From sequence record NC_047884.1: a stretch of 64,000 nt of DNA; one strand, given 5' to 3'. The stretch comes from Escherichia phage saus132. Below the pieces are notes generated by a model. That model searched no databases and had not been told where the DNA came from. It was given only the letters and a program-made list of their open reading frames with translations. A program made the position numbers and the translations under genes. Positions 2,220 through 64,000 of this stretch are shown piece by piece (the first letter of the stretch is position 1; each line of letters opens with the position of its first letter).

Positions 2220-2284
2220 ATAAAGTACTTGCTTATATTACTTTTATTTGATATTATATTATTATAAATTAGAGAGGAGGGTGT

Positions 2285-3902: not shown

Positions 3903-4042
3903 TCTTTTAGTATGGCCGGACGGTAGTTGGTGCTACCGTTTCGAATTTGCTACCGATGACTTCTCATGGAAGAGTGATGATTTCTGCGTTATCTATGAGG
4001 ATACAGCAGAATGGAAAGAGTTCCTTATTAAGGAGGGAGAAT

Positions 4043-4228: not shown

Positions 4229-4721
4229 TACTCCTGTGATTTTCCTGGATATTGATGGGGTACTCAATTCGAGCATCTCTCACCATCATGCTCTAGACAG
4301 TGAAAAGCTGTTCTTTGGCAGTGATTGGGTTTATAAGCCATTACTCCAGGTTTTTCAGAACTTTCTTAAACCCTCCCCAATAATGATTGTTGGGGTCTCT
4401 TCATGGTTTTCTGTACGAAATGAAATGGAGAACGTTCAGATTATGACCGGACTCGGTTTGATCGATCGTTTCCTTGGTACAACAGATTTTACTGGAGGTG
4501 GTTTATATCGGGGTAATTCTGTTTTACGTTTCGTCGAAAAACATAAGCTCAAGCATTGGTGTGTCTTAGACGATGCTGGTGCTATGATGTATCAATTTCC
4601 TACTGTTATTGTAAATGGCAGGACTGGAGTAAACCTTCAAGATTTAAATGCTATAAGCTATATGCTGGAATTTAGTCCAGATCTTGAAATGTGTAAGGCT
4701 CTTCAGAAACTTAAGGTATAA
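4206..4721 (+). CDS. HAD-superfamily phosphatase-like protein (start uncertain)
   Basis: N-terminal FLDIDGVLN (DxDGx motif I), later VLDD motif. Confidence 0.5.
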   Translation: MLLVEISNTPVIFLDIDGVLNSSISHHHALDSEKLFFGSDWVYKPLLQVFQNFLKPSPIMIVGVSSWFSVRNEMENVQIMTGLGLIDRFLGTTDFTGGGLYRGNSVLRFVEKHKLKHWCVLDDAGAMMYQFPTVIVNGRTGVNLQDLNAISYMLEFSPDLEMCKALQKLKV

Positions 4722-4723
4722 GC

Positions 4724-5152
4724 ATGTTCAATAATATTTTCATGAAAGAGGTAAATCCTATGCTCCTCAACTTCTGGCGTTCTCTCCCTAATGGTATGTA
4801 TAATGAAACCATCAATCTGCTTAAGATTTGGTGTGAGAATAATGATATCTTCTTATCCTTTAAAGGCCCACTAGAGGAAGCTCCATGTATTGGAGTTAGT
4901 GTGGATTTAGGTGAGGGAGTAGAAGAGATTGTAGACTGGAAAGAACTCGATGAAATGGGTCTGGTTTTTGCCTTAAATCATAAGCTGTTTATGCCTGCAA
5001 ATCACCGTCTTATTGTAAATTATCGCACTGGTGAAGCTCCTGCTTTCCAGGTAAATGAACGTGAGGGCTGGTCATATTCGCCCGAGGAAGTAAATGAGGG
5101 GATTCAGAAACTTCGTCGTTTCGGGTATATGATCCCAGGTTTAACTGCTTAA
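4724..5152 (+). CDS. Hypothetical protein, paralog A of a tandem pair
   Basis: Shares MGLVFALN...P...TGE...PGL pattern with the next ORF. Confidence 0.6.
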   Translation: MFNNIFMKEVNPMLLNFWRSLPNGMYNETINLLKIWCENNDIFLSFKGPLEEAPCIGVSVDLGEGVEEIVDWKELDEMGLVFALNHKLFMPANHRLIVNYRTGEAPAFQVNEREGWSYSPEEVNEGIQKLRRFGYMIPGLTA

Positions 5153-5161
5153 GGAGGCAGA

Positions 5162-5557
5162 ATGGAACAAGTATTTTGGCGTCAGATAGATCCTAGTTTG
5201 GTAGAGCGTGCTGAGGGGCTCCTTGCACGTTGGTTGGGGGTTGACAAGGTTAGTGTAACATTTCCGTTTACTTCTGTAACAGACCCTAGTGTAGGTGTCT
5301 TTGTGGACGAAGATGAAGATGATGGTTGGGAAGCTGACTGGAATGAATTGTCCAGTATGGGCTTGATTGTTGCCCTCAACTTCTCTATATTCCATCCACG
5401 TGGCTTAGCCATTACACGTGACCCCGAAACTGGTGAATCCCCTTATCTTTTGCAAGTAGAAGATGATATTTGGGAGTACACCGAAGATATTCTCGAAGAA
5501 GCTAAAGGTCAATTAAATCGCATTGGGATCTATGTTCCAGGCCTAAATGATGATTGA
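5162..5557 (+). CDS. Hypothetical protein, paralog B of a tandem pair
   Basis: MGLIVALNFSIFHP...TGESPY...VPGL aligns with the preceding ORF. Confidence 0.6.
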   Translation: MEQVFWRQIDPSLVERAEGLLARWLGVDKVSVTFPFTSVTDPSVGVFVDEDEDDGWEADWNELSSMGLIVALNFSIFHPRGLAITRDPETGESPYLLQVEDDIWEYTEDILEEAKGQLNRIGIYVPGLNDD

Positions 5558-5648
5558 TTTTCATTAGTCCAATCCTGATTACCGAGTCATTTTGGCTCGG
5601 TTTTCTCTGTGCTCAAAGACACTGATAGCACCTTCGGAAAAATTTTAC

Positions 5649-5678
5649 TTGCAGGATGCTCAAAATCTTGATATAATA
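5649..5678 (+). promoter_or_regulatory. Early promoter with extended -10
   Basis: TTGCAG, 18 bp spacer, TGaTATAAT, followed by conserved ATTTATATTGAATTGAGAGA downstream block. Confidence 0.5.
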
Positions 5679-6173
5679 TTTATATTGAATTGAGAGACAT
5701 TAGTAAAAATTGATTTTGCTAATTTTTCTTGTTTACAATCCGCAATACGGAACAGTTAGGCTGCCCCATTAAGGGTTGTTTTAACTATTACTAGTGTTTA
5801 TACTGCATTAGTTAATTATCAATTAAGTGATCTGCGTACCCTGAATTCGGAAAGGTAAATCCAAACCGTGCATATTTAGCTCGTTATATAGGCAGAGCTT
5901 TATATGGGGGTGCGAACGAAAAGAGCAGCGAATGGTGACACGTCCAGTAGCCACCTACCAATAGGATAGTGAGGGCAATCAGAATCGGCTTAGCGGCCAA
6001 TGACCTAGGTTCTGATCTGGATAAGAGTTAAGAGAGCGCAGCACTGAGGTATGATAACTTATTCATACTGCTTGATGATGATTAATGTTTGTGTAAATGG
6101 TAGTAATAGTTGTTCTATTCTTTTGAATAGTCCTAAAGAAAGATATCCGAATAACCAACATAGGAGTATTGTT

Positions 6174-8963
6174 GTGTTCTCAATCCTACAAGGTCACGCA
6201 GGATTTTCCAGAGATAAAGCCACTGGCATCTGGAAAGAGATCAAAGTGGAAGACTACACCTTTGCAAAGCGATTCTCTAAAGAGCATCCAGAAGGTAAAC
6301 CAGCTTCCATGCCCTTCAAATTTGATGTACTTGAAGAACTTGACCCGCAAAACCTTGCTGAAATGTTACCTATCATGCGTCGTCTTACCAAAGACCCGCA
6401 TATTGTAGCTATTCGTGGTAAATGTTTAGCTCCAAAAGATAATGTGCGTCGTACCAGAGGAAACTTTAATGTATCCAATCCTAGTCATATTATTGCTATG
6501 GACGTGGATGGTATTGTAGATACTGGTGGCTATGACAAGTTTAATCTTGTCGGCATGGCACGTCATATTATTAAGATGTTGAATAGTATTAGTGAGGATA
6601 TGTTTCCTCTTGATGCAGGGTTTATTGCTCATGCATCGTCTTCGGCTGGCTTAAAACCAGGTATCCGAATGCACTTAATGCTAGAATCTAATGTCAAGGT
6701 AACGCAGGGGCAATTAAAATTCCTATTTACATCCATCAATGACAGTAGTAAGCAAAAGTATGGCTTTGATATTGCTGACTTAGCTTATTATTCTTCTGTT
6801 CAGCTTCACTATTTCGCAGATCCCTTATTTGATGATGGTATAGTCGATCCGTTTAAAGCGGAGAATAAACCACGTCTTGTGTATGTTAAGGGTTCGAAAG
6901 TGAATCTACCCAATAACCTAGTTGACTTTGAAACAACTAGAGGTGAGTTTAAAGAAGAATTCTACTCCTTACTTGACCAAATTAAAGGCAAGAAGGCTGC
7001 ATCTGATAAAGTGGAAGAAACCATCAGCGAACTAGAAGAAGCTGAGGATGGGGTGTACCTGCGTATTATCCCAAAACTTTATCACAGAGCGTTAGAAGAT
7101 GGTGTTGACTTTACGTGGTTAGAACGTGAGATTAAACCAGCTTTATCTGAGTATATTGCGACTAAAGATAATAGTCGTAATATTCAAGATTACTTTAATA
7201 ACGGTCGTAAGCAGGCTCTCAAAGCCTTTGTAAATAACTCCAAACGTGAGATTCCACCAAACTTAAAAGGTGTACCATTAAAACGTCTAGACACAGATTC
7301 TCCACCAGAAGTTCCATACCTGAAAATTAACATTGTACCACCAAAAGGACATTTAACATTTGTTAAGGCAAGTCTTGGTACGGGTAAAACTACAGCAGTA
7401 ACTAAGTGGCTAGATGCAGGTGTTCTTCCAGGGAACTTTATTGCAATCACAAATACTAGGGCACTTGTATCTTCTAACGCGAAGAAATTCGGTGCTGGCC
7501 AGTATGATAAGTCAGTTGATATGCTGAACTTCAAACGTGGTGCTATTGATCGTATGTCTTCAACTATTCACTCTATCCATAAGTTCAAGAGCTTTGTGGG
7601 TCAGATTGATACGATCTTTATTGATGAATGTGATGCAGTAATGAACGATCTGTTATTCGCTCCGGTTGTTAAAAACCGTCGTGAATGTATTCAGGTTCTT
7701 CGTGATATTCTTATTACTGCAAAAACGGTGATCTTATCTGATGGGGATATCAGTGCAGAAACGATTGAAGCCTATGGTTCTTTGATTGATTTTGATAAAC
7801 CGGTTGCGTTCTATAATCATCACCGTAAAATGCTGGCAAAAGCTCATGCTTATGAATTCCCTGACGAATCCAGTATTTGGGTTGCACTTCAAACATCTCT
7901 AGAGATGGGTGAGAAGTCAATCCTAGTATCTGACTGTGGACCAGATGAACTGAATGAAAAGGGAATGGCATTACGTCGTAATACGGGTGCGTTAGTTAAA
8001 GAAATTCACTCAAACTCTACGTCTGATGTAGATATCCGTCGTATTCTGGATTATACAACTAATGAGCTAATTGATCAACAGATTGATTGTTTGTTATGTA
8101 GTCCATCTGTAACGAGTGGTGTTGACTTTAACTATTTTGATAACGTATTCGTAATCACTAGAACCTCAAACCAAGCGCCAAACATGCGTTTTCAAGCAAT
8201 CAGGCGCGACCGTGGTGCTCAGAACATTTATTATTTTATTGATAAATCTACGAGTGGATTTTCTGCGGGTTCCGAGCAATATAATATTGACGAAGGTTGG
8301 ATTGAGTTAGCCCAACAACTGTACGCACGTCGCCGTGAGCTGGAATCTAGAAACTATACCAGTACTTTGCGTTATTATCTTCTCGATCAAGGTGCAACTA
8401 TCGATATTTTCAGCGAAAGCTGGGGAACTATCGAAGGTGCAGGCAAAGAGTATATAGAAGAGCGAATCAAAGCTATTTTGCACTCAACTCCTGAATATTG
8501 CGCACCACGTCATGCAGACGCCTATGAAGCCAAGTTACTTCTGGTTCGCTATTATCATCTGGATTCTATTAAAGATGTAATAGTGGAACACGTTGAACAG
8601 TATATTAAGGATAAACCAAACGATAGAGCTGCATTCTTCCATAAGATGCACGACATGTTCTGGGAAGATATTAAAAAGTGTTCAAACGTAACAATCAAAC
8701 CGTTTATCGAAGCTCTTAAGAATAAGAAGAAGGATTTCTTCCTTAAGACAGGTCAGAGCGCTAACCCAAAATATGCTCGTATGTATCTTGGCATGATGGG
8801 TATCGGTAAAGATCTGGATACGGAAAAGATTGTGGACTGGTACAGAACTTACTGTAAGATCGAATGTATGCCGATTCCAGTTAAGTTTATGACAGATGAA
8901 GAACGTCAGATGCATGAGGAAGCTCTTGCTGAATTGGGGGCTAGAAATGACAGCGAAGAATAA
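6174..8963 (+). CDS. Putative replication initiator / origin-binding-type helicase-like ATPase
   Basis: Walker A SLGTGKTT, Walker B FIDECD; start placed at GTG 6174 (RBS AGGAG 7 nt upstream) instead of track start 6051. Confidence 0.6.
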   Translation: MFSILQGHAGFSRDKATGIWKEIKVEDYTFAKRFSKEHPEGKPASMPFKFDVLEELDPQNLAEMLPIMRRLTKDPHIVAIRGKCLAPKDNVRRTRGNFNVSNPSHIIAMDVDGIVDTGGYDKFNLVGMARHIIKMLNSISEDMFPLDAGFIAHASSSAGLKPGIRMHLMLESNVKVTQGQLKFLFTSINDSSKQKYGFDIADLAYYSSVQLHYFADPLFDDGIVDPFKAENKPRLVYVKGSKVNLPNNLVDFETTRGEFKEEFYSLLDQIKGKKAASDKVEETISELEEAEDGVYLRIIPKLYHRALEDGVDFTWLEREIKPALSEYIATKDNSRNIQDYFNNGRKQALKAFVNNSKREIPPNLKGVPLKRLDTDSPPEVPYLKINIVPPKGHLTFVKASLGTGKTTAVTKWLDAGVLPGNFIAITNTRALVSSNAKKFGAGQYDKSVDMLNFKRGAIDRMSSTIHSIHKFKSFVGQIDTIFIDECDAVMNDLLFAPVVKNRRECIQVLRDILITAKTVILSDGDISAETIEAYGSLIDFDKPVAFYNHHRKMLAKAHAYEFPDESSIWVALQTSLEMGEKSILVSDCGPDELNEKGMALRRNTGALVKEIHSNSTSDVDIRRILDYTTNELIDQQIDCLLCSPSVTSGVDFNYFDNVFVITRTSNQAPNMRFQAIRRDRGAQNIYYFIDKSTSGFSAGSEQYNIDEGWIELAQQLYARRRELESRNYTSTLRYYLLDQGATIDIFSESWGTIEGAGKEYIEERIKAILHSTPEYCAPRHADAYEAKLLLVRYYHLDSIKDVIVEHVEQYIKDKPNDRAAFFHKMHDMFWEDIKKCSNVTIKPFIEALKNKKKDFFLKTGQSANPKYARMYLGMMGIGKDLDTEKIVDWYRTYCKIECMPIPVKFMTDEERQMHEEALAELGARNDSEE

Positions 8964-52184: not shown

Positions 52185-53966
52185 TTAGGTTAGGCGTTGA
52201 ACTGTTACACGTAGTCTTGGCAAGAAAACAGCTGCCGCTTCTGCAGCGTGAATGATAACACCCAACTCAACGTTGCCATTACCAAGGTTTTTAATAGTAT
52301 AAATATATCCGTTCCTACGGAAAGCAAACTCATCAGGCCTACTAGCCCAAGTTTGTGTATAACTATAGGAAGTTGTACTGTGATAAGGTACTAGATATCC
52401 AGGTGGCAGAGTAAGAATCTGGTGGAATACACCATCACCAGCAGTATAACTTTGTTGCCGTCTACCTTGTACCTGCCAAGCACTACCTCCGTAAGTACGC
52501 ACAGGCATTCCAGCAGTATTAAGATTACCCATAATAACTTCAGTAGTTAATATAACAGTAGAGTGAGCATTCGGTAATCCCAACCAAACTGTGGCCAAAG
52601 GTGTGTAGAAGTCACCAGCACCAGGGTAGGATGGAGTTATATCGTCCCCTACATAAGTACTTGCAACGTTGCCTGGGAATAACCTGAGGGGTACAGTACT
52701 AGGACTCCAGACAGGTCCATGTTCATTACCAATGGAGTTGGTATTAGTATCTACATACCATTGTTTACCTACACCAAATTTATATAAGCTAATTTGAGAA
52801 GCTGCACCCCCATAGTTAACAGGAGACCACAATCCGCCATTACTAGAGCCGATAAATTCACATCGTGCAGTATTATCACCAAAAACTCCGGTATACGCAG
52901 CGTTATTACCAACATACTCCATATCAGGGCGATAGCCTAAGTTTCCGAAAGCATTCTGGTTAATAAATTTATAGCCTGTATTTGGTAGGCTAACACCTTT
53001 AATAGTAAAGTTAGATGGAGATATTAAGATATCTGAACCGGTAAATGGATTACCAGAAACTCCCATACTACCATTAGAATAGCGCAGATTTAGTACATAC
53101 CAAATAACCTTAGTTGGCGTAACGTTGTACCAGTCCTGTACATATACCTTTCTAGTGGCTTGCGCAGCCATATTAGTTGTAGAACCCCTACAAACGTATA
53201 CTTTAGTAGGAAAGGAGGGGGATTGGTAGTTAATGTTTACGTTATCTGGTAGTACGCCTTTTTTACCTGCGAAGCCACGAATATTAGAACTACAAACATA
53301 AAACCAATCATGGCCTCTACCAGCAGAACCAATAGGCGCCTGCCAGTTAGGATCCCAATAATCAGCGTTACCACCATCTAAAGGAACAGTAGAGACACCA
53401 GTTGGAAAACCCATAAGACTCCAGGCTCTGGCAATGGCTTCACCAGCAGGAACACCACCAGGTCTAAAGATCTGGAAACCAGAGGACTGTAGTAAACTGC
53501 CTCCAGAACCTTGCCTAGCAATAGATTCCTCATGACCAAGACCACCATTATAGATATAAGTACCATGAGCTAAACTATCCCCGATCGCAAAAGCAGATGT
53601 TACAGATAATTCAGCACCAGCACGTGGTGGGTCTTCAAAAAATGATAAGAACTGGCCAACCTGAGATTGAGTACCATTGAGGAATCCTCTATGAGTACCG
53701 TTTATCTCAATAGCAGTTAATATAACTCTACCTGGATCATTGGATTTAATATTTATAATATCCCAAGGCATCTGAGTAACAAAGTATCCATTACCTGCAT
53801 TACCTAGGGCTGCTTCATAAGTCCCATCAACCAGGACGAAAGGCATATCGGAGTGGAAAATACTATTAGTATTTGGAGAATAGTGCTCACCAGTATCACC
53901 ACCATTAGCAGCATTTAGAGATAATACAGTTTTACCATCACTAAATTTTCCTGCGAAAAAACTCAT
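52185..53966 (-). CDS. Receptor-binding protein (T5 pb5/oad-like)
   Basis: N-terminus MSFFAGKF...[20 protein letters not shown] resembles remembered pb5 start; Gly/Asn/Tyr-rich; divergent lipoprotein gene alongside. Confidence 0.7.
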
Positions 53967-54049: not shown

Positions 54050-54316
54050 ATGAAAAAGTTACTAGCTATCGTAGTTGCAGCAGTAGTGTTGACTGGTTGT
54101 GTACCAGCTCCCGAGCCATTCTGTAAGGCATACGTGAAGTCTTATGGACATGTTGGTGAAGAACACTACGCTTTAGATATTCGAGAAGCACGTACTGTGG
54201 GCTACCGATTCCCTAAAACTCAGTTACGCACTAAGTTTGGGTGGTGGGATTTGTCACAGTTTGATCTCAAATATGGTGATTGCAAATTTAAACTAGAACA
54301 ATCTGGTCACTTGTAA
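54050..54316 (+). CDS. llp: Lipoprotein, putative receptor-blocking superinfection-exclusion protein (Llp-like)
   Basis: Signal peptide with lipobox MKKLLAIVVAAVVLTGC; small size; divergent from the receptor-binding protein gene. Confidence 0.7.
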   Translation: MKKLLAIVVAAVVLTGCVPAPEPFCKAYVKSYGHVGEEHYALDIREARTVGYRFPKTQLRTKFGWWDLSQFDLKYGDCKFKLEQSGHL

Positions 54317-54389
54317 TTAGTATAAAGTAAAAAGATCTCGAAGTAAACAAAAATTTTTATTTCTGGGATGAGGTACAGGTAGCAAACAC

Positions 54390-54600
54390 AATGCAAGATG
54401 AAGAAAAGTCCTTTCAGGAACCTGTTAACTTTGAAATAAATCCCAGGAATAAAAAGCAATACATGATGCAATTGATGAAATCATTCAAGACGTCATAGAA
54501 GATACAGTAGAAGACGTGATGGAACATCCTTCTTACTAGAAGAATCCGGCTTCGACGAAGTAATGGATCTAATCGGGACAGTCGTAATGGTTCGTGCAAT
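54390..54600 (+). pseudogene. Possible decayed gene remnant
   Basis: Three consecutive short protein-like frames (MQDEEKSFQEPVNFEINP..., ...AIHDAIDEIIQDVIEDTVEDVMEHPSY, ...EESGFDEVMDLIGTVVMVRAIARVFQ) separated by frame changes. Confidence 0.3.
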
Positions 54601-54779
54601 TGCTAGGGTATTCCAAATACCAAGACTATAGGAGAAGCAAAGAGATGTCAGAAGACAACAGAAGAAAGAACAGACGTGGGGAAGTGTACGAAAGTTGGAT
54701 AAATAGTTTCGGATTCGGAACTGTATTATTCTTTATCTTTGTACTCTTTTGGTTAGCGGCTATGGCGGGGTGGTTATAA
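54594..54779 (+). CDS. Small membrane protein
   Basis: C-terminal hydrophobic helix FGFGTVLFFIFVLFWLAAMAGWL. Confidence 0.4.
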   Translation: MQLLGYSKYQDYRRSKEMSEDNRRKNRRGEVYESWINSFGFGTVLFFIFVLFWLAAMAGWL

Positions 54780-54882
54780 TGGAAGTAATAATTATTGCTT
54801 TACTAGTTGTGGTAATTATAGAGCAGTGCATCTTAGATAACCACTTAGCTCGTATCGAACGTAAGCTGCGGGGAGACAAGTA

Positions 54883-55128
54883 ATGTTTAGTTTTGTAGCT
54901 ATCTTCATTATCGGGGTACTTGCGGGAATCTTCGGAACACTCGGGGCTATTAACAAACATCGTGAATATATTGCGGGAGTATCGCGGGAGCTTTCGGAAA
55001 GGGAGCGGAAGTTTGCGGAGAAACGTGCGGAGTTTGAGCGAGAATGGTCTGATGGATCTCGGGCGTCGCGGAGGAGGTTTCGTATGTCAGAATCAGGAGA
55101 CAAGCCAGTAGACCGGTGTTCTTCCTAA
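54883..55128 (+). CDS. Small membrane-anchored protein
   Basis: N-terminal helix FSFVAIFIIGVLAGIFGTLGAI then charged tail. Confidence 0.45.
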   Translation: MFSFVAIFIIGVLAGIFGTLGAINKHREYIAGVSRELSERERKFAEKRAEFEREWSDGSRASRRRFRMSESGDKPVDRCSS

Positions 55129-55243
55129 GTTAGCGCTAATTACCAATTCTCGAAATTTCATAAGATTACACATGCGGGTGGGCCCAGAGGTTCCCCAGAT
55201 GAGAATGAGTCTCATTACCGCCCCGGTACTTAGCAAGCTAATA

Positions 55244-55286
55244 GTCACACCATGTTATCATTACACAGTGTGACTATTTTATTTTT
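55244..55286 (+). terminator. Rho-independent terminator
   Basis: GTCACAC-17 nt loop-GTGTGAC followed by TATTTTATTTTT. Confidence 0.55.
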
Positions 55287-55291
55287 AATTG

Positions 55292-56026
55292 TTAGGCAAC
55301 TTTTAATTTATCAATGAATTGTTGCGGAGTGGTACTATATTCCGCGCGTTCTTCCTCGGTCATACCTTCCCAACACATTTTTAAACGTTCGGCTAGGAAT
55401 TGATAATCGTTATCATCATCAAGCGATTCATCAATAAAGGTTTCACCGATCAATGTTACGCCGATTGATAGGATATCATTAACGGCTTGAGCGTCCAGCG
55501 TTTTAAATCCAGCACTTGCCGCCGCCGATAATACACCTTTATGATCATCAATCATTGTAAAATCAGCGTTAGGATATAGCTGTTTAAACAGTTCAAAGTA
55601 ATAAGATTTATATACAGCGTCTTTGCTGTGATATATTTCGCTAACCTTATTTGCATCAAAGTATTTATGTAATGTATCGCGGGAAAATACGCGAATATTA
55701 CTATTTCCGCGCCCTCGCAAGCCTTGTTTACGCAAATAAAAGTAATCGCTTTTAGACATTAAGCGAGCGGTACAAATAATATTTAAAGTATTTGCATCAT
55801 TCATGCACTGGCGCATATATTCAACCAACGGCAATAAAGAATCCTGCATAATTAAATCATGTTTACAGGCTTCGCGGAAATACTTATTTAAATCTAAATT
55901 CCCGTTATCATCAAAGCAAGGCGCTACACGGTGGAAAGAATTAATGATAGTTCCGTCTAAGTCCCAAATCATAACGCGGGAAATATGCGGGAAAGTGCGG
56001 GTAATATTCATATTGACTTGATTCAT
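55292..56026 (-). CDS. dmp: Deoxynucleoside-5'-monophosphatase (HAD family, T5 Dmp-like)
   Basis: 244 aa; N-terminal MIWDLDGTIIN (DxDGT). Confidence 0.75.
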   Translation of the reverse strand: MNQVNMNITRTFPHISRVMIWDLDGTIINSFHRVAPCFDDNGNLDLNKYFREACKHDLIMQDSLLPLVEYMRQCMNDANTLNIICTARLMSKSDYFYLRKQGLRGRGNSNIRVFSRDTLHKYFDANKVSEIYHSKDAVYKSYYFELFKQLYPNADFTMIDDHKGVLSAAASAGFKTLDAQAVNDILSIGVTLIGETFIDESLDDDNDYQFLAERLKMCWEGMTEEERAEYSTTPQQFIDKLKVA

Positions 56027-56113
56027 TTGTTACATTCTCCATTTAAGGGATTTAGGTTAATTCAATCTTGCCAGCTAATTATATTAGATTAGCTGGCAAT
56101 GTTCAATTAACTA

Positions 56114-56506
56114 TTAATTAGTGAGGCCATACGCTAGCGCGTCACCGATAAAGGAAAGATCTTCACCATGTACGCTAGAACGGATACCCGCGCAAGTGTA
56201 AACCATCGCGCTAGCTTCTGGATTGCAGACCGGACACGGCTTAACAACTGCAAACGCTAGACCGGATTTAAGCGCATCAATAATAATTGTTTGCACTGTC
56301 AAAGTATCAGCGTAAACTCCTTTTGCTTTTGTATGGCTTGCCACTTTGCCGGTATCATAAGCAAAGGTAGTAACCTGCAAAGCGTCGTTATAATTCAGCA
56401 AATCGAAATTAACTTGCCCCGCCTCGACGTGATAACGTTCGCCATTAGAATAAACTAGAACGATGGAAGAAGTAGCACGATCAAAAGGAATGTTTTGGTT
56501 TTTCAT
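56114..56506 (-). CDS. Hypothetical pre-early-region protein
   Basis: ORF with GC-richer codon usage typical of this block. Confidence 0.55.
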   Translation of the reverse strand: MKNQNIPFDRATSSIVLVYSNGERYHVEAGQVNFDLLNYNDALQVTTFAYDTGKVASHTKAKGVYADTLTVQTIIIDALKSGLAFAVVKPCPVCNPEASAMVYTCAGIRSSVHGEDLSFIGDALAYGLTN

Positions 56507-56538
56507 GTTTATGACTCCAGATTATTTAATTACGGGAT

Positions 56539-56817
56539 TTATTGAAAAAATACATTTAAAGATAAATCAGTTTTACGAAAATATGTTTCGTCGCCGTCTT
56601 TCCTTTCTTGATTAAGGTAATCGCCTGTCATTACCTGAATAGAATCTTTTCCGAAAAAGATCATATTTTCGCCAATATTACTATCCCATACGGCATACAT
56701 TCCCGCGTACATTCCACGGGTAACTAAATAAACGCAACTATCAAAAGACATTTCAGACCATGCAATATCTTCTAAACAATTGCTATCAGGGATAGATATA
56801 TTAATTTTACTAGCCAT
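56539..56817 (-). CDS. Hypothetical pre-early-region protein
   Basis: ORF between A1-like and dmp-like genes. Confidence 0.5.
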   Translation of the reverse strand: MASKINISIPDSNCLEDIAWSEMSFDSCVYLVTRGMYAGMYAVWDSNIGENMIFFGKDSIQVMTGDYLNQERKDGDETYFRKTDLSLNVFFQ

Positions 56818-56869
56818 TTAATAAACCTTTTATTAATGGCGGTATATTTCAACCGCCGATTAAATTTAA

Positions 56870-58534
56870 TTATGCAAAGAATTTTCCATTCTTAAAGTCA
56901 ATCAAAGTACGCTGCCCGTTTGCGTATGTAATTAAATGGGTTTGCGTCCAGCTACTAGCGCCAACGTTGTAACCCATATCGAGACTACCAGCAACGCCAG
57001 CGGTATAAACGCCGCCATAAATACTAGCCGTGTGAGTGTGGCCAGTATTGAGGCGTCCCAACTTTTTGAACTGTTTTGGATTGCCCCGACTGCCATTAAT
57101 GCCGTTGTGACCATGAACACCGCATTCAATTCCTGCAATCTTGAAAGATTGGTCAGTGGTTAGGAAAATGGCGTTAAATTCGCAACCTGCAACGTTTCTA
57201 AGCGCGTAATCCAATACGTTAAAGGTATCATCTTGTTTTGCAATAGCTGCATAAATCGCGGCGTTTAGGCTGTGATACAGTTCGGCGTTTGCGGGGTCGT
57301 CTTTAATGTTAGCGTTGCGATCATCAAGCCAACGGGATAACGCCAAATCATGATTGGATTCCACGATGATTGTTTGAGAAAAATCGCGCTCCATTGACTC
57401 CAACACGCGACCGGTATCAATGAGATCGTCAATAACTTTGTCACGTCCGGCGGCGTACTGTTTAGCTAGGAATACACCAGAGGCACGATTATGATGATTG
57501 CGGGATGTAAAATCGTGTACGTCATGGATAAACTGATATTTCGGTTTAAGAATATCAAGCAAGCTATTTTCGCCCACCCATGATGCAACGGCGCAATCAT
57601 CATCTAATTTTTCGGCGTGAATATCGCCATATTGCAAGCCTAAAACATGATCAGATGTTTTGAAACATCCGGTGGGCACAGCGCAAACGTTCAAATCGTA
57701 GAACATCCCGCTTTCGTCCATAGTTTCAAGCTGGCGAACAAAAAATTCTCCGTCGTCGTCAAATTCTACCAGTAAAGCACCGAAATTATGCAGCGCCTCG
57801 GCCTTTTGTCCTGCCTTTTGCTGAATATAGTTTTTAAGTGTAGCCGTTCCGGTGGAGTACATACGGCGCACTACTTCACCTTTTAACGCTGGCACACTTT
57901 CAGCGGTAATTTTTGCGTGACCAATTGCCAGACCTTCGATGTTTAAAGCCGTTGCAGTTTCTGCGAATCCAGAAAGCGGATAATCTGCCGTTGGTAATAC
58001 ATTAATTTCAGCCATGAAAGCAAAACGGCGATTATTCAAAAACACGTTTTTCTCACAAATATATTTATCAAATGCGGGATCATATTTGATTTTTTCGCCG
58101 CCTTCCCCGTTCTGAAATCCGTTTTTGTTGTAAATGAATTTGCTAACAAGTAATTCAGCGCCGTAATAACTAGCGTACTGCTCAAGCGCTTTCAAAAAGT
58201 TTTTATGCGGGAAAGTATTGTTTTGAATCGACGTTAGAATAAAACGGCGACCGGATTTAACTTCCCACTGTTCAACGGTGCTAGAAACAATCCCCGCCGC
58301 TTCTGGGCGATCATCGTTTTTAATGGCTTTTACTGCCTTCGCTGCCTTCGGTTTCGCTGGCTTATTTGCTTCCAACCAGTCACAAATTGCCGTTGAATGT
58401 TTCGGCGTATCATAAACAGCTTTTGAAATATCGTCGCAAACTTCCAATTTAGTAGCGCGTAAACGCTTACCGTAGAAGTTAAAATCTGCGGCCATTTTCA
58501 AAATTTGAGCTTGTTTTTCTGCGGAAATATTCAT
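56870..58534 (-). CDS. A1: A1-like pre-early protein (calcineurin-type metallophosphatase motifs)
   Basis: 554 aa; motifs GDIHAEK, GHNGINGSRGNP, GHTHTASIY; size matches remembered T5 A1. Confidence 0.75.
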   Translation of the reverse strand: MNISAEKQAQILKMAADFNFYGKRLRATKLEVCDDISKAVYDTPKHSTAICDWLEANKPAKPKAAKAVKAIKNDDRPEAAGIVSSTVEQWEVKSGRRFILTSIQNNTFPHKNFLKALEQYASYYGAELLVSKFIYNKNGFQNGEGGEKIKYDPAFDKYICEKNVFLNNRRFAFMAEINVLPTADYPLSGFAETATALNIEGLAIGHAKITAESVPALKGEVVRRMYSTGTATLKNYIQQKAGQKAEALHNFGALLVEFDDDGEFFVRQLETMDESGMFYDLNVCAVPTGCFKTSDHVLGLQYGDIHAEKLDDDCAVASWVGENSLLDILKPKYQFIHDVHDFTSRNHHNRASGVFLAKQYAAGRDKVIDDLIDTGRVLESMERDFSQTIIVESNHDLALSRWLDDRNANIKDDPANAELYHSLNAAIYAAIAKQDDTFNVLDYALRNVAGCEFNAIFLTTDQSFKIAGIECGVHGHNGINGSRGNPKQFKKLGRLNTGHTHTASIYGGVYTAGVAGSLDMGYNVGASSWTQTHLITYANGQRTLIDFKNGKFFA

Positions 58535-58642
58535 AACTAAATCAACTCCTATAAAGGGATAAATATTAATACTGGCAATATTGCCAAATATAACGCCTTA
58601 CCTGAAGTGAGGACAATTTAAAAGGCGTTATAATTTGCAATA

Positions 58643-58888
58643 TTATTCTAGAATTGGCATAAGACTAGAACTAAAACCGCAACTAATAGCCAGCGTTAAA
58701 AATATAATCGCCAGATATTTTTGTTTATTAGCTTGACGTTTAAACATATCAGCGGCATAAGCTGAATTAATGCCGATAATAGAAATTATATATTTGCCGT
58801 AATTAAATATAAATATAGCGGCAACTATAAATAAACCTAAAATAAACGCTTCACTAGGGAAGAAGATCATTTTAATAACTCCGGTCAA
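58643..58888 (-). CDS. Small integral membrane protein
   Basis: Two hydrophobic helices (FILGLFIVAAIFIFNY and YLAIIFLTLAISCGF). Confidence 0.45.
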   Translation of the reverse strand: MTGVIKMIFFPSEAFILGLFIVAAIFIFNYGKYIISIIGINSAYAADMFKRQANKQKYLAIIFLTLAISCGFSSSLMPILE

Positions 58889-58928
58889 AGGGAAATTATA
58901 GCGGGGAATAATCCCCGCTAATTAAAAT

Positions 58929-59345
58929 TTATTCACCTGCGGCCTGTTTTACTTCCTCCGCTACGCCTAACAATTGCGCTACGGCTTCCAGCGTTTCCAG
59001 TTTTGCACTTTCCAGACTTGCCAGATCATCAGCGTCTTTGATAACGCCAGCATCAATGGCATGTTTAGCCATAACGCGCACATAGTGAGCTTTACGGACA
59101 CTAGACCCGCCGCCAACTTTACGCGGTTTATCACTTTTCTGGTACGCTTTTGCGCTTGTCAGTTTAGAACGTACAGAAACAGGGCTTGCAGCGCCAACGG
59201 CGGCGGCAATTTCTTTCAGGCCGTCACTGTTAGCAAATTCAATTCCGCTTTTAGCGACCATTTCAGAATACATAGAAACAGCCTTTTCGGTGTTTTCTTC
59301 GTTCCAAGAGAATTTTGCGGTTTTTTCGGTTTTAACGTTAGACAT
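58929..59345 (-). CDS. Putative A2-like pre-early DNA-binding protein
   Basis: 138 aa ORF upstream of A1-like gene in transcription order; assignment by position and size only. Confidence 0.4.
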   Translation of the reverse strand: MSNVKTEKTAKFSWNEENTEKAVSMYSEMVAKSGIEFANSDGLKEIAAAVGAASPVSVRSKLTSAKAYQKSDKPRKVGGGSSVRKAHYVRVMAKHAIDAGVIKDADDLASLESAKLETLEAVAQLLGVAEEVKQAAGE

Positions 59346-59631
59346 AATTTAATACTCCATTCAATTATTAATTAAGGGATTATGATTAACTAAATGTTAA
59401 TCGCTATATATTCTATTAGCTAGAATATATAACGGAAACATTTTATTTTTATTTCCAGTTTCAAGCGGTTTATTAATTCCCGAATATATTTATATTCTCA
59501 CCTTATCCGGCTTGCCAGAGAATTAATAAGGCAACATTGTATTTATACGCTGTTTATTATTCCGTTCACGCTAGGAATATTTCGAGTTATCTTTATTGCC
59601 TAACTAAGCATGATATGTAAGGCGCATTAAT

Positions 59632-59883
59632 TTATGCGATAGCTTGCCATTTATCATCTTTCTGAATGATTTTTACAACGTCGCCAGATTTAACACGGAC
59701 GTTATAAATAGGCTTGCCGTGGTTACTGCGTTCCGTTTCCGCATAGACCGCTTCAATCTTATCAAAGGGATCAAGCGCCGCACCTTTAATACGTTCGGCT
59801 TTTCCGGTTAATTCATCCGTTTTAGTTACAAAAGGAATGAATACAGATTGACCTACTTTCGGCGCGGTAATAACGTTTTGCAT
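59632..59883 (-). CDS. Hypothetical protein
   Basis: ORF in pre-early block. Confidence 0.5.
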   Translation of the reverse strand: MQNVITAPKVGQSVFIPFVTKTDELTGKAERIKGAALDPFDKIEAVYAETERSNHGKPIYNVRVKSGDVVKIIQKDDKWQAIA

Positions 59884-60047
59884 TTTTAATACTCCGGTTT
59901 ATTGGGGATTATTCCACAATAGCGCCTCGATACTTTGAAACGCTATTAGATTATAATCCGCTAGGAGTTAGCCTAAACATTACCGTTATCCAAATTGTTA
60001 AAGAGCAGTTACTACGGGGAACATCTTAAAACCTATCGGCTAGCGTG

Positions 60048-60257
60048 TCAAGCGTTTTTTAAACTTTTTTCGATTTGATGTGAGTTATATAAATCAATCA
60101 TTATATTACGCCACACCATTTCCAGACCTTGCTGCTTACCTTTCTTGTATTGCTTGAATCTGTATTTTACAGATCTTTGCGCTACTGTCAACAAATTTTT
60201 TGTTCTGCTATCAAGTGACTTGATAGGCTTGCCAGTGATCAAAAGCGTTTGTTTCAT
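60048..60257 (-). CDS. Hypothetical basic protein
   Basis: Lys/Arg-rich ORF; an upstream 52-codon ORF (60260-60418) overlaps its start by ATGA. Confidence 0.45.
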   Translation of the reverse strand: MKQTLLITGKPIKSLDSRTKNLLTVAQRSVKYRFKQYKKGKQQGLEMVWRNIMIDLYNSHQIEKSLKNA

Positions 60258-60749
60258 TTGAGATCCTCCAAAGCATATAAACCATCCCCATCATTGCAGA
60301 TTATTACCGCTTCCGAATGATTAGCATAGTATTCATTTGCAGTCTTTACCCATTGTTCGATTTTTTCGATAGTGTCGTGGGTAGCTGGATGATCGTTAAA
60401 TATTATTGTCATATCGTCGATTCCTTATAATGTATAAGTTTACCGCCGATAGGCTTTAAGATGTTCCCTAGTTTTTAAAGAGCATGGCGGTAAACTTCCC
60501 CGCCGTGTAGTTCGTCATTGCCGCCCTACGTGATAAATATTAGGGGAATACCGAAAAGGGCGCAACCATATTTTTGTAAAGAAACGTAAAGACAAACGCC
60601 ACCGCACCACGTCCAGCGGCGCACTAAATTTAATGAAACGGGCGCGCGAATAACACCAAAACAACCATTTTAGCAAGTAATTTTTTCATTTATATCTGCT
60701 CTAGGGTACTTGACAAAATCTAAAATCCTCGTGGTGAGGTTTTCTCGGT

Positions 60750-60830
60750 GTGCCCCTTATGGTTGCCTATCTTTTCCTTTGAGGCGCTTAGAATGCGTTA
60801 CAGAGCGTTTTAGACCCTGTTAATAACTTA
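60750..60830 (+). repeat. Direct repeat copy 1 (core TTAGAATGCGTTACAGAGCGTTTTAGA)
   Basis: 27-bp core at 60786-60812 identical to 63363-63389, degenerate similarity on both flanks. Confidence 0.85.
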
Positions 60831-60859
60831 TACAAAAAGCAAAAATGAAATTTAATGAG

Positions 60860-61201
60860 TTATCCACTTGATTTTTCAAAAAAGTATTTTCTGCTATTAT
60901 TTTTCATTGACAAATAAGTTTAGACGTGCATTGATTGGTTAGCAGACTAACAATCGCTAGGATGATAATCACGCTGGTGGATTGTAACAGCTGAAACAGT
61001 TAGCAGACTATTAATACTCTAAAAACCTATTAGCCAACTAACTATTTCATATTATATAATATACTTATAAATTAAAGAGAAATAATAACTATAAGAAACT
61101 ATCGGCTAAGTGAGAACCACTATCATTTAGGTTATTCACAAAGTTATCCACAGCACAAAATAACTTGACGCAATAGGCGACGTTTTGGCGACTTATCCAC
61201 A
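60860..61201. promoter_or_regulatory. Cluster of DnaA-box-like 9-mers
   Basis: TTATCCACT at 60860; TTATCCACA at 61144 and 61193; weaker GGTGGATTG at 60976. Confidence 0.6.
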
Positions 61202-61247
61202 GACTTATATACAGGTTATCCTACTGTATAAATATACAGGGTAGAAT
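61192..61247. repeat. Left arm of long inverted repeat (contains DnaA box and palindrome CTGTATAAATATACAG)
   Basis: About 90 percent identical to reverse complement of 63418-63472. Confidence 0.85.
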
Positions 61248-61519
61248 GGTAGCAGTAACAACCGCAATCAAATTTAAGCGGCCTAGAACACGCTATACGG
61301 CGTTTTCTCACTGCTACCCTTATTATAATAAAGCCTTGTGTACGCTTACAGAGAACTAGAAATAGAAAACGCGCGGCAATGGAAGCGGCAATGTTGGAAA
61401 TGGTACAAAGTTTCAATATTGCTGAAATGATCGATGAAATGGTAAAAGGTATTGACATTTCAACCTTTACCCAAAATGCTGAAAGCGAGTAATAATTAGT
61501 CTAATGTAAAGTTTTGTAA

Positions 61520-61546
61520 AGGTCGCCCTAATCGGCGGCCTTTTTT
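61520..61546 (+). terminator. Terminator-like hairpin
   Basis: GGTCGCC-ctaatc-GGCGGCC followed by TTTTTT. Confidence 0.45.
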
Positions 61547-61548
61547 GT

Positions 61549-61554
61549 TATAAT
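61549..61554 (+). promoter_or_regulatory. Extended -10 promoter element
   Basis: TGtTATAAT followed by RBS TAGGAGG and ATG 61612. Confidence 0.4.
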
Positions 61555-61611
61555 GCCTTTACACCGAAACGGTGGATTGAAAATTTTCCCCTGATTTCTA
61601 GGAGGCGTTAA

Positions 61612-61839
61612 ATGGTACATTCATCATCTTCTGCAATTTTTAACGGTATGGAATGGGTATCCGTTCCCGCTATTGTCAGCGTTATGGTTTCTGAGTTCGG
61701 CATAGGTAAAACTTATGTTACCATTCAGGGGCTTTACGACAATGACAAGATTGACCAGCAAACCGCCGGATTTTTGCTGGATGAATTGAAAGCTAACCAT
61801 TGCACTAAAAAGCAAGCGGCAAAAATTGTTTTAATGTAA
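61612..61839 (+). CDS. Hypothetical small protein
   Basis: RBS context ATTTCTAGGAGG. Confidence 0.55.
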   Translation: MVHSSSSAIFNGMEWVSVPAIVSVMVSEFGIGKTYVTIQGLYDNDKIDQQTAGFLLDELKANHCTKKQAAKIVLM

Positions 61840-61885
61840 TTATTAAAGGGGATATATTATCCCCTAATTTCTAGGAGCTAATAAA

Positions 61886-62035
61886 ATGGTTATTTTTCGA
61901 TCTATTCTGGCTAGTATCTTGGGCGCTATTTTATCGTTGTTTGCAATAGCTTTCGGTGTTCATGCCGTTATTATCGGAGCAGGTATCGCGGGGTTTTCTT
62001 ACTTGTTAGGCTGTATGACTGGTAAAGGGGAATAA
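61886..62035 (+). CDS. Small membrane peptide (49 aa, below ORF-track size cutoff)
   Basis: RBS context ATTTCTAGGAG; hydrophobic ILASILGAILSLFAIAFGVHAVIIGAGIAGF. Confidence 0.4.
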   Translation: MVIFRSILASILGAILSLFAIAFGVHAVIIGAGIAGFSYLLGCMTGKGE

Positions 62036-62037
62036 AA

Positions 62038-62250
62038 ATGTTAAAGAATGTTTCCCTTGCCCGTTCCAAAGGTTTTAAGCTGGTGGATGTTAACACGTTC
62101 GAGCGTCCAGATTGTAAAATTGAATATGTAGCACGCAACAAAAACGCTTTCCGTGTCACTGAAAAGAAATTTGACAAGCGCGGCAATTTGGTAGCCGAAA
62201 CGGTTAAACACTTTGCCACTTTTTACGCTGCATTTCGTGGGGTATTATGA
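62038..62250 (+). CDS. Hypothetical small protein
   Basis: ORF in tightly packed operon. Confidence 0.5.
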   Translation: MLKNVSLARSKGFKLVDVNTFERPDCKIEYVARNKNAFRVTEKKFDKRGNLVAETVKHFATFYAAFRGVL

Positions 62251-62387
62251 AAACTTTATTTTCTATTTTGCTCGGTGCTGCTGGTGGCTTTATTGCTACC
62301 TGCTTTAAAAGTGATCCTGCACTGTTAGGCGTTTATTCGATTTGTTTTGGCTATTTGCTAGGGAGGCTGGCAGATGGTTATTTATGA
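62247..62387 (+). CDS. Small membrane peptide (46 aa, below ORF-track size cutoff)
   Basis: MKTLFSILLGAAGGFIATCF...; start overlaps upstream stop. Confidence 0.35.
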   Translation: MKTLFSILLGAAGGFIATCFKSDPALLGVYSICFGYLLGRLADGYL

Positions 62388-62718
62388 GGGCAATCGCTTT
62401 GTTACTAATTGCCGTCCGGCATTATTAGCAAACTATTTAAACCAGCTTTCACCAGTTTATAAAGGCGTAATTAATATCTATGAGGGCAAAGCACATTATA
62501 AGATTAATGCCATTGTTGCCCGTGAACTAGCGTTTCAATTTTTAACTTTTGGATCTTGTGACGTTCAGGTTATGGGGGAAGCGTTAATAGCAGAAAATGA
62601 AAATGAATTTATCGACATTTTCCGCAAAGTATGTACAGAGCGCCTGATTATGAAAGGCGCGTATATTCAATCAACCGCTGAAAGTATAGAAACAGCGTTT
62701 CGAAAGGTGGCGCAATGA
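62374..62718 (+). CDS. Hypothetical protein
   Basis: ORF in operon. Confidence 0.55.
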   Translation: MVIYEGNRFVTNCRPALLANYLNQLSPVYKGVINIYEGKAHYKINAIVARELAFQFLTFGSCDVQVMGEALIAENENEFIDIFRKVCTERLIMKGAYIQSTAESIETAFRKVAQ

Positions 62719-62912
62719 CTAAAGATGAAGCACTAGAAAAAATGAAACAAGGTTTCAAAGTTCGTCAAGAATACTTCACTAGTGAGGAATTTTTGTACAT
62801 GAAAAATGGCGTGATCATGTCAGAAGATGGATATACTTTTAATGACTGGTTTTTCAAGATTACCCCTGCTACACGTTGGAAGCTAGACGGTTGGAGCGTC
62901 TACCGTGAATAG
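62715..62912 (+). CDS. Hypothetical small protein
   Basis: ORF overlapping upstream stop (ATGA). Confidence 0.5.
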   Translation: MTKDEALEKMKQGFKVRQEYFTSEEFLYMKNGVIMSEDGYTFNDWFFKITPATRWKLDGWSVYRE

Positions 62913-63035
62913 CTGGTGGCGAAAAACACAAAGCCATAAATCTAATAATACCGCTGGGAAACATTCCCAGCGTTTACGATTTAGTAGCGGGCTTGTAATG
63001 GTAATAATAATCATTCTCATTCTAGGAGCGATGGC

Positions 63036-63275
63036 ATGGCTGTAAGAATTTTACGATATGTGGAACGTAAAGAAACCGATATTATGCAACATCATTTAAC
63101 TGATGCGCAATACGCGCAATTTTTAGAAATGCAGAAAAGCGGAGCTGATACGGCAACGCTAGGAGCGTGGATCAACTCAGTTTCAACGTGTACGCATTTT
63201 GATTCATACGGGTATACGCCAGCCGAAACCGTCCAGATCTTTGATGACTACGAGAAAGAATACATAGCAGACTAA
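63036..63275 (+). CDS. Hypothetical small protein
   Basis: RBS TCTAGGAGCGATGGC-ATG; followed by terminator. Confidence 0.55.
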   Translation: MAVRILRYVERKETDIMQHHLTDAQYAQFLEMQKSGADTATLGAWINSVSTCTHFDSYGYTPAETVQIFDDYEKEYIAD

Positions 63276-63281
63276 TAATAA

Positions 63282-63309
63282 CGGGGCGCAACTATCGGCC
63301 CCGCTTTTT
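63282..63309 (+). terminator. Rho-independent terminator
   Basis: CGGGGC-gcaactatcg-GCCCCG followed by CTTTTT. Confidence 0.6.
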
Positions 63310-63324
63310 CTGGCCTTCCTCAAA

Positions 63325-63405
63325 TTTCCCCTTATTAAAATACCTCCTCCAAAAATAAACGCGTTAGAATGCGTTACAGAGCGTTTTAGAGCTATATTAG
63401 AGTTA
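63325..63405 (+). repeat. Direct repeat copy 2 (core TTAGAATGCGTTACAGAGCGTTTTAGA)
   Basis: 27-bp core at 63363-63389 identical to 60786-60812. Confidence 0.85.
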
Positions 63406-63417
63406 TTCACTACGCAG

Positions 63418-63472
63418 GAATACTGTATAAATATACAGTAGAATAACCTGTTGATAAGTCTGTGGATAACGC
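63418..63472. repeat. Right arm of long inverted repeat (contains DnaA box TGTGGATAA and palindrome)
   Basis: Reverse complement matches 61192-61247 at about 90 percent; further GGTGGATAA at 63522. Confidence 0.85.
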
Positions 63473-63562
63473 CTCAAAATCGCTAGGATTTTGTCAAGTC
63501 AAATCGTGCTGTTAATAAACCGGTGGATAACTTAAATAACAGTGTTTCTCACTTCGCTTTGT

Positions 63563-63706
63563 AAATGCGAGTCACTCTCATTATCATTCGCGTTTCCCTT
63601 CCTAAATGCAAATCATTCTCATTCGTATTCCGGTAGTCAAATGATAACTATTCTCATTCGCATTCAACTTCTCAAATGCGAATCAATCTCATTATCATTT
63701 GCATTT
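63563..63706 (+). repeat. Iteron array 1: four tandem ~36-bp units each containing an inverted pair AAATGCGAAT...ATTCGCATTT
   Basis: Units start at 63563, 63604, 63639, 63674. Confidence 0.8.
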
Positions 63707-63743
63707 CGGCAGGCAGGGCATTTTCTATTTGCCCTGCGCTTTT

Positions 63744-63966
63744 GTGCAAATCCGACATTTGCCCCCACGGATTACGTGCCAGCGTGCATGTGCGAATCCG
63801 ACAATTTTTGGTAGTGTGCAAATCCGATGGCAAATATTTTTTATATGTGCGAATCCGACAATGAATTTTCCTAAAAACTCCAGCAATCCGCAACTGCGAT
63901 GCAATCCAGCTGGGTTTACTAGAGTATGTGCAAATTCGACAAGTGTTAAGGTGTGCGAATCCGACA
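63744..63966 (+). repeat. Iteron array 2: six same-orientation copies of GTGCRAATYCGAYR (array may continue beyond window)
   Basis: Copies at 63744, 63790, 63816, 63847, 63929, 63953; shares core TGCGAATC with array 1; perfect hairpin GCAGGGC/GCCCTGC at 63713-63737 between arrays. Confidence 0.8.
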
Positions 63967-64000
63967 AGATTTTTGTGACTTCGATGAGAGGGTGTGTGAT

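Follow-up and report, generated by a model that had tools for sequence, protein, structure and literature searches.

Where does the unique late region of this T5-like phage genome pass into the long direct terminal repeat, and how precisely are the limits of that repeat placed? The window, the whole stretch of DNA analysed here, comprises the last 64,000 nt of a genome of the chee130_1/saus132 group of T5-like phages (Epseptimavirus). It aligns to MF431738.1 (poul149) at 100% coverage, with 100.0% identity across 7 kb and a single mismatch in its final 14,501 nt, and the end of the window is the end of that record. At position 57784 the window has A and poul149 has G; the A fits the pattern listed for all group members but poul149 (PMC5816814), and the numbers of mismatches to the five deposited records of the group indicate saus132. 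The members of the chee130_1 group (poul149 MF431738, chee158, cott162, saus176N, and chee130_1; Svab et al. 2018, PMC5816814) have essentially the same genome, with the repeat annotated at the same place. Segment 54317-59345 almost certainly covers the point at which the unique late region of this T5-like phage (Demerecviridae) gives way to the right copy of its long direct terminal repeat. Such a junction is standard for T5-like phages, and it is already known here from the GenBank annotation of the near-identical poul149. Our only addition is an indication that the published limits make the repeat too short, by about 100 and 210 bases at its two ends.

In MF431738.1, the left terminal repeat occupies 1..8717 and has the same gene (CDS) layout as the right copy. 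The window itself carries the right copy only; bases 1-137 and 8117-8717 at the left end of poul149 align identically to window positions 55284-55420 and 63400-64000, respectively. The preliminary description had placed the repeat boundary between about 54.3 and 55.3 kb and had proposed an alignment of the window against the other genome end. The second copy is present at the left end of MF431738.1, and the boundary falls inside that interval at its extreme right edge, at 55284 as annotated or at 55181/55182 by homology. The preliminary description had also proposed a read-depth profile, and such a check is already in print: the repeats of the chee130_1 group were set from the read pile-up, at >130% of mean coverage (PMC5816814). 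The identity of the two deposited copies may be an artefact of how the record was built, through duplication of a collapsed assembly.

Table 1 Features on both sides of the junction between the unique late region and the right terminal repeat (window coordinates).
Feature	Position	Strand	Basis
Receptor-binding tail protein pb5/oad	52185..53966	-	phrog_4815, E 1e-281; receptor-binding protein in MF431738.1
llp/Cor-type lytic-conversion lipoprotein (receptor-blocking protein)	54050..54316	+	phrog_1119; weak lipobox LPAM_1; position of T5 llp; receptor-blocking protein in EscoHU1
Remnant of 104-aa ORF (EscoHU1_155 homolog), two frameshifts	54391..54700	+	tblastn: three pieces in three frames, 90-91% identity; outside repeat
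Small single-pass membrane ORF	54594..54779	+	phrog_8596; outside repeat; comparable T5 series T5.159-162
Small hydrophobic ORF, P149_0153 in GenBank	54770..54883	+	CDS 112756..112869 in MF431738.1; outside repeat
81-aa membrane protein, T5.162 homolog	54883..55128	+	76% identity to T5.162; phrog_6447; GC 0.496
Conserved non-coding stretch just outside repeat	55133..55181	.	GCGCTAATT...TCTCGAAATTTCATAAGATTACACATG..GGTG
Right terminal repeat predicted by homology	55182..64000	.	Start 55181 (T5) or 55182 (EscoHU1, SIY1lw); window/record end about 209 nt short of predicted true end
Hairpin 55240-55278 and T-run	55240..55291	+	-16.1 kcal/mol (z -4.0) on +; -21.1 (z -6.1) on -
Right terminal repeat as annotated (poul149), 8,717 nt	55284..64000	.	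repeat_region 113270..121986 in MF431738.1
dmp, deoxynucleoside-5'-monophosphatase, 244 aa, pre-early	55292..56026	-	T5 Dmp, 91% identity; GenBank annotation; MIWDLDGT
T5.002 homolog, function unknown	56114..56506	-	phrog_4576; T5.002 position
T5.003 homolog, function unknown	56539..56817	-	phrog_18783; T5.003 position
A1, predicted metallophosphatase, 554 aa	56870..58534	-	T5 A1, 90% identity; phrog_1745
Small membrane protein, T5.005 homolog	58643..58888	-	44% identity to T5.005; phrog_4820
A2, DNA-binding protein, 138 aa	58929..59345	-	T5 A2, 86% identity; phrog_1725
Non-coding repeat region, T5 injection-stop-signal (iss) type	63400..64000	.	Aligns to T5 bases 9783-10000, part of annotated iss region

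The T5 records have dmp, A1, and A2 inside the terminal repeat, and llp and small ORFs directly before its right copy. In the window, the order and strand of dmp, A1, and A2 on the left side of the repeat are those of T5. The three ORFs had been matched to T5 Dmp, A1, and A2, and BLASTP bears out all three assignments, at 91% identity over 244 aa, 90% over 556 aa, and 86% over 131 aa, respectively, in agreement with PHROGs. Dmp has the HAD-type DxDGT nucleophile motif and is orthologous to T5 Dmp, and its HAD fold is predicted. The translation of A1 contains the motif-like strings GDIH, SNHD, HGH, and GHTH, set here against the metallophosphatase motifs DxH, GD, GNH[DE], H, and GH. Since Pfam (E 0.01 for A1) and PDB sequence searches returned no match for Dmp or A1, the labels 'HAD' and 'metallophosphatase' are taken from motifs and the literature, where A1 is termed a 'predicted metallo-phosphatase' (10.64898/2026.04.02.716235). 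T5 A1 is needed for host DNA degradation and second-step DNA transfer (10.64898/2026.04.02.716235), and A2 is described in the literature as a DNA-binding protein required together with A1 for second-step transfer.

The genes upstream of the junction are late genes, encoding the terminase large subunit, pb5/oad, and the llp/Cor-type lipoprotein, the last of which is the final named gene of the unique late region. The preliminary description had the sequence switch to the pre-early block beyond the lipoprotein gene. The dmp/A1/A2 block does follow, but about 865 nt past the lipoprotein gene (bases 54317-55181) are still unique late-region DNA with small plus-strand membrane ORFs. One of these, the small single-pass membrane ORF, probably starts at the ATG at 54645, because only residues 22-61 match its family. 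The last gene before the repeat, encoding the 81-aa protein, has the highest GC content of any ORF in the region and is rich in GCG and CGG. A Pfam search with ten ORFs of the region gave a single match, the weak lipobox of llp, and the same kind of search gave no match for a 174-aa ORF at 49824-50348 that is HNH-like in appearance.

This arrangement closely resembles that of T5 (AY543070, AY587007, AY692264), in which the terminase, pb5/oad, llp, and small membrane ORFs are followed by a repeat carrying dmp-002-003-A1-005-A2 on the minus strand, with a terminator hairpin in its first ~110 nt, iss-type repeats and DnaA boxes at its right side, and conserved sequence at both cut positions. In contrast to the T5 repeat of 10.1-10.2 kb, that of the window phage is shorter (~9.0 kb as predicted here or 8.7 kb as annotated), and it lacks or has replaced the hegG HNH gene and several further T5 ORFs, 011 among them. 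The length of pb5 is 593 aa in the window and 640 aa in T5, and that of llp is 88 aa and 77 aa, respectively; these size differences are consistent with a different receptor. EscoHU1 (LC659915) and vB_SalS-SIY1lw (PP105779; hereafter SIY1lw) have the same late-region/repeat junction, with ~93-94% nucleotide identity across it, and their repeats, annotated at 9,914 and 10,101 nt, start 110 nt 3' of the dmp stop codon. Both phages have intact 104-aa and 64-aa ORFs between llp and the repeat, whereas the window carries a frameshifted version of the 104-aa ORF and lacks the 64-aa ORF.

We mapped the boundaries of these relatives onto the window through two alignments with programmatic column mapping, taking the EscoHU1 termini as annotated; the SIY1lw termini had been set by PhageTerm. 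The left boundary of T5, EscoHU1, and SIY1lw falls at alignment columns 98-99 (window 55181/55182), and the right boundary of all three falls at one column, 411 (position 8926 of the poul149 left copy). The sequence is conserved at both T5-type cut positions, and the read-derived boundary of the chee130_1 group stops short of them by 102 nt at the left end and by 209 nt at the right end. From 55183 onward the window is nearly identical to EscoHU1 and SIY1lw, as is the poul149 left copy up to 8926. The conserved block at the left cut reads ...TCATAAGATTACACATG..GGTG before the cut and G/TG.CCA... after it, and that at the right cut reads ...GAAAATTCCTGTGGCTC before and TAAAAACTCAGGC... after. 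The stretch just outside the repeat (55133..55181) is shared by the window with T5, EscoHU1, and SIY1lw, although T5 and SIY1lw have diverged in the DNA that precedes it. This stretch may form part of the signal at which the terminase cuts the left end. In all three T5 records (AY543070, AY587007, and AY692264), dmp lies at 124..858. The T5 repeat is given as 10,139 or 10,219 nt, and we considered this discrepancy as a sign of uncertain termini. We rejected that reading because, from ~6.4 kb rightward, the feature coordinates of the two records differ by 79-80 nt, which makes the length difference internal.

On the basis of these alignments, the true termini probably lie farther out than the GenBank limits, by 102 nt at the left end and 209 nt at the right end, and the predicted repeat is ~9,028 nt rather than 8,717 nt. 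Read coverage increases only gradually inward from a physical DNA end, and the GenBank limits were drawn at a coverage threshold. The alternative is that the limits are exactly those in GenBank (55284-64000, 8,717 nt) and that this group cuts about 100 and 210 nt inside the T5-homologous positions. Although the GenBank limits are the only boundary drawn from the group's own reads, we regard this alternative as unlikely: a cutoff at >130% of mean coverage does not map termini as such and is apt to land inside the true ends, the surroundings of the T5-type cuts are conserved in the window (from 55183) and in the poul149 left copy (to 8926), and both cut positions are common to three other phages, one of them mapped by PhageTerm. 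In addition, 55284 sits in the T-run of the terminator hairpin, 8 nt from the dmp stop codon. We therefore favor termini outside the GenBank limits, and we think it likely, from sequence comparison, that the deposited repeats of the whole chee130_1/saus132 group, including the exemplar of the species Epseptimavirus saus132, are ~311 nt short, that the true termini are nucleotide-precise homologs of the T5 termini, and that the flanking conserved non-coding blocks are terminase cutting signals of Markadamsvirinae.

The hairpin at 55240-55278 lies within the first 110 nt of the homology-predicted repeat, and folding suggests that it is a probable terminator of the plus-strand late transcript; on the minus strand it folds just after dmp. 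In T5, the corresponding hairpin has another stem sequence and a folding energy of -24.2 kcal/mol, and AY587007 annotates a 'putative rho-independent terminator' at 69..105. A consensus terminator scan did not report the window hairpin, the loop of which exceeds the limit of the scan, and folding was hence used. The right side of the repeat contains iss-type direct and inverted repeats and DnaA boxes, as expected of a T5-type repeat: five copies of TGTGCGAATCCGACA at 63743-63972, the DnaA-box-like TGTGGATAA at 63461 (three occurrences in all), and a 135-nt inverted repeat with arms at 61105-61239 and 63423-63557. The last ~209 nt of the predicted repeat would lie beyond the window.

A composition shift had also been noted at the junction. 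It is found at the codon level but not in bulk GC, which is 0.402 in both 1-54316 and 55292-59345 (the latter at the 53rd percentile among segments of its size); taken as a whole, the repeat has a slightly lower GC content (0.393). In dmp and A1 together, CGC and GCG reach 25.1 and 17.5 per 1000 codons with a GC3 of 0.39, compared with 3.8 and 6.8 per 1000 codons and a GC3 of 0.32 in 37 upstream ORFs (>=150 aa), and the two highest CGC values among the 39 ORFs are those of dmp and A1. The only GC-rich patch with positive GC skew (54.6-55.13 kb, GC 0.443) lies outside the repeat. We considered this patch (54.5-55.25 kb) as a signal of the repeat boundary and rejected it as coding sequence of the plus-strand small ORFs, because these ORFs, homologs of T5.159-162, are outside the repeat in T5, EscoHU1, and SIY1lw.

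The CGC and GCG enrichment fits translation of dmp and A1 by the unmodified host apparatus before the phage tRNA genes enter. The same enrichment relative to the 37 other ORFs could be read as a mark of horizontally acquired DNA of other origin, instead of an adaptation of pre-early genes to host translation. We consider such an origin very unlikely, since bulk GC is unchanged at 0.402 and A1 is reported in 227/227 Demerecviridae genomes analysed, with dmp and A2 in most (10.64898/2026.04.02.716235), and the block is therefore ancestral to the family.

In the layout that we propose, the DNA up to ~55181 is unique and carries pb5, llp, and a run of small plus-strand membrane ORFs, and the repeat extends from 55181/55182 (55284 in GenBank) to the end of the window; its minus strand encodes dmp, 002, 003, A1, 005, and A2, and non-coding iss-type repeats come after these genes. 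We consider it very unlikely that there is no physical terminal repeat and that the junction is an artefact that arose when a circularly permuted or collapsed genome was assembled or linearised: many related 108-116 kb records do hold one copy, with dmp/A1/A2 mid-record, and Davison reports that assemblers mishandle T5-like repeats, but raised coverage across the block is reported for this phage group (PMC5816814), the terminal repeats of T5 are experimentally established, PhageTerm finds a long terminal repeat with homologous limits in the close relative SIY1lw, and late genes abut dmp even in a collapsed assembly because the junction is real in the right-hand copy.

With a physical repeat at both ends, and by analogy with T5, the left copy would be the first-step-transfer DNA and thus the first to enter the cell. 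Host RNA polymerase and ribosomes would then express A1, which degrades host DNA and shuts off the host, A2, which binds DNA, and Dmp, which breaks down dNMPs, after which A1 and A2 would let the remaining genome enter. The right copy may be a packaging by-product that is used in recombination or replication.

If the homology-based termini are correct, the blocks beside each cut would supply the terminase cutting signals of Markadamsvirinae, which have so far lacked a definition. Repeat limits set by a coverage threshold can err by 100-200 nt, which affects genome length, record ends, and studies of terminase cut sites. Since the cut positions appear to be conserved to the nucleotide between Tequintavirus and Epseptimavirus, they may offer a simple homology rule by which T5-like assemblies can be oriented and trimmed.

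The junction between late and pre-early genes in the window is a terminal-repeat boundary, as the preliminary description had proposed for the interval of about 54.3 to 55.3 kb. Upstream of the junction are the late genes for the terminase large subunit, the receptor-binding tail protein pb5/oad, and the lytic-conversion lipoprotein Llp. Beyond it lie dmp, A1, and A2, with homologs of T5.002, T5.003, and T5.005 among them. In T5, dmp, A1, and A2 are likewise inside the repeat, and llp and four small membrane ORFs directly precede its right copy. The three ORFs described at 54317‒59345 were present on the minus strand, and their proposed identities were borne out by BLASTP and by PHROGs, which places them in the corresponding families. 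Since Pfam and PDB sequence searches did not recognize Dmp or A1, the labels "HAD" and "metallophosphatase" derive from short motifs and from published work, in which Dmp is described as a dNMP phosphatase and A1 as a predicted metallo-phosphatase (preprint 10.64898/2026.04.02.716235).

Features at and around the late/pre-early junction (window coordinates)
Feature	Position	Strand	Remarks
Remnant of EscoHU1_155 homolog (104 aa)	54391-54700	+	Two frameshifts leave it in pieces in three reading frames
Hairpin, then T-run	55240-55278	both fold	-16.1 kcal/mol on +, -21.1 kcal/mol on -
Dmp ORF	55292-56026	-	91% identity to T5 Dmp over full 244 residues (BLASTP); DLDGT motif
A1 ORF	56870-58534	-	90% identity to T5 A1 (BLASTP)
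A2 ORF	58929-59345	-	86% identity to T5 A2 (BLASTP)
135-nt inverted repeat	61105-61239, 63423-63557		Arms 2.2 kb apart, 75% complementary
DnaA-box-like TGTGGATAA	61144, 61193, 63461
TGTGCGAATCCGACA repeat	63743-63972		Five copies

The repeat itself is annotated in a near-identical phage. In a megablast search of positions 53500‒60500 against phage records, 100% coverage and 100.0% identity were obtained for five T5-like members of the chee130_1 group, the best being poul149 (MF431738.1, 121,986 nt, Epseptimavirus) at record positions 111486‒118486. Subtracting 57,986 from MF431738.1 positions gives window positions, and the right ends of window and record coincide exactly. Within the last 14,501 nt, the window departs from poul149 at one base only, position 57784, with A instead of the G of poul149. 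This is a synonymous A1 position corresponding to repeat position 2501, where poul149 alone among the group carries G (Table 3B of PMC5816814), so the window fits a different member of the group, most likely saus132. The "right terminal repeat" of MF431738.1 (113270..121986) corresponds to 55284..64000, and its "left terminal repeat" (1..8717) has the same CDS layout. Alignment to this left genome end showed identity at 55284‒55420 and 63400‒64000. The equivalent of the suggested read-depth check is already published, since a read pile-up above 130% of average coverage served to define the repeats, which came to 8,717 nt in the chee130_1 group (PMC5816814).

The composition shift claimed for the junction was found at the codon level but not in bulk GC. 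Bulk GC is 0.402 both before 54316 and across 55292‒59345 (53rd percentile among same-size windows), and the whole repeat is slightly AT-richer (0.393). The sole GC-rich, positive-skew patch, at 54.5‒55.25 kb, is coding sequence of small plus-strand ORFs outside the repeat, chiefly an 81-aa ORF at 54883‒55128 (GC 0.496, 76% identity to T5.162). On the other hand, dmp and A1 combined have 25.1 CGC and 17.5 GCG per 1000 codons and a GC3 of 0.39, against 3.8, 6.8, and 0.32 for the 37 ORFs of 150 aa or more located upstream. Dmp and A1 show the two highest CGC values of these 39 ORFs (36.9 and 19.9 per 1000 codons; maximum of the other 37, 14.3). Also upstream, a 174-aa ORF that starts with TTG (49824‒50348, minus strand) and is situated between the terminase and the portal-side genes carries CxxC and His-rich motifs and is HNH-endonuclease-like in look; only its last 46 codons are annotated in GenBank, and a Pfam search at E 0.01 gave no match.

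At 55284, the deposited boundary is within the T-run of the hairpin, 8 nt 3' to the stop codon of dmp. The T5 counterpart of this hairpin (-24.2 kcal/mol) differs in stem sequence and is annotated as a "putative rho-independent terminator" in AY587007. Since dmp is located at 124..858 in all three T5 records (AY543070, AY587007, and AY692264), the left terminus of T5 is 123 nt past the dmp stop; in EscoHU1 (LC659915) and SIY1lw (PP105779), whose termini were set with PhageTerm in the case of SIY1lw, it is 110 nt past. In a multiple alignment, the left boundaries of all three phages fall at columns 98‒99, equivalent to 55181/55182, and their right boundaries share one column, equivalent to position 8926 of the left copy in poul149. 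This position is situated 209 nt beyond the deposited repeat end and also beyond the window end. The T5 repeat measures 10,139 or 10,219 nt depending on the record; this discrepancy arises from an internal 79‒80 nt offset and not from the ends.

The deposited 8,717-nt repeat thus falls inside the homologous termini by 102 nt at the start and 209 nt at the end. A coverage threshold is expected to lie inside the physical ends because coverage of the end-bearing copy climbs gradually. We therefore think, by homology, that the actual repeat spans about 9,028 nt, starting at 55181/55182, with its last 209 nt absent from the window, and that position 64000, the record end, is unlikely to be the physical right end. 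The junction is already known and annotated, and these likely under-annotated limits are the only new element.

In the unique DNA directly before the repeat (54317‒55181), the remnant of a 104-aa ORF disrupted by frameshifts precedes three small membrane ORFs. In EscoHU1, the 104-aa ORF is intact, and about 184 nt at its 64-aa ORF EscoHU1_157 are missing from the window. In contrast to the diverging DNA upstream, a non-coding block of about 50 nt immediately outside the repeat (55133‒55181), reading GCGCTAATT...CATAAGATTACACATG..GGTG, is kept in T5, EscoHU1, and SIY1lw. On account of this local conservation, the block is a candidate for part of the sequence that the terminase recognizes or cuts.

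Toward its right side, the repeat shows an architecture of the T5 injection-stop-signal (iss) type, and its inverted repeat, TGTGCGAATCCGACA copies, and DnaA-box-like sites match the arrangement described by Davison. By analogy with established T5 biology, the left copy would be injected first, and transfer would pause at iss. A1 would then bring about host DNA degradation and, with the DNA-binding A2, permit the second-step transfer, and Dmp would remove phosphate from the released dNMPs. The identical right copy would be produced during packaging. The codon bias of dmp and A1 may reflect pre-early translation on the unmodified host apparatus, before the remainder of the phage genome, including its tRNA genes, enters the cell.
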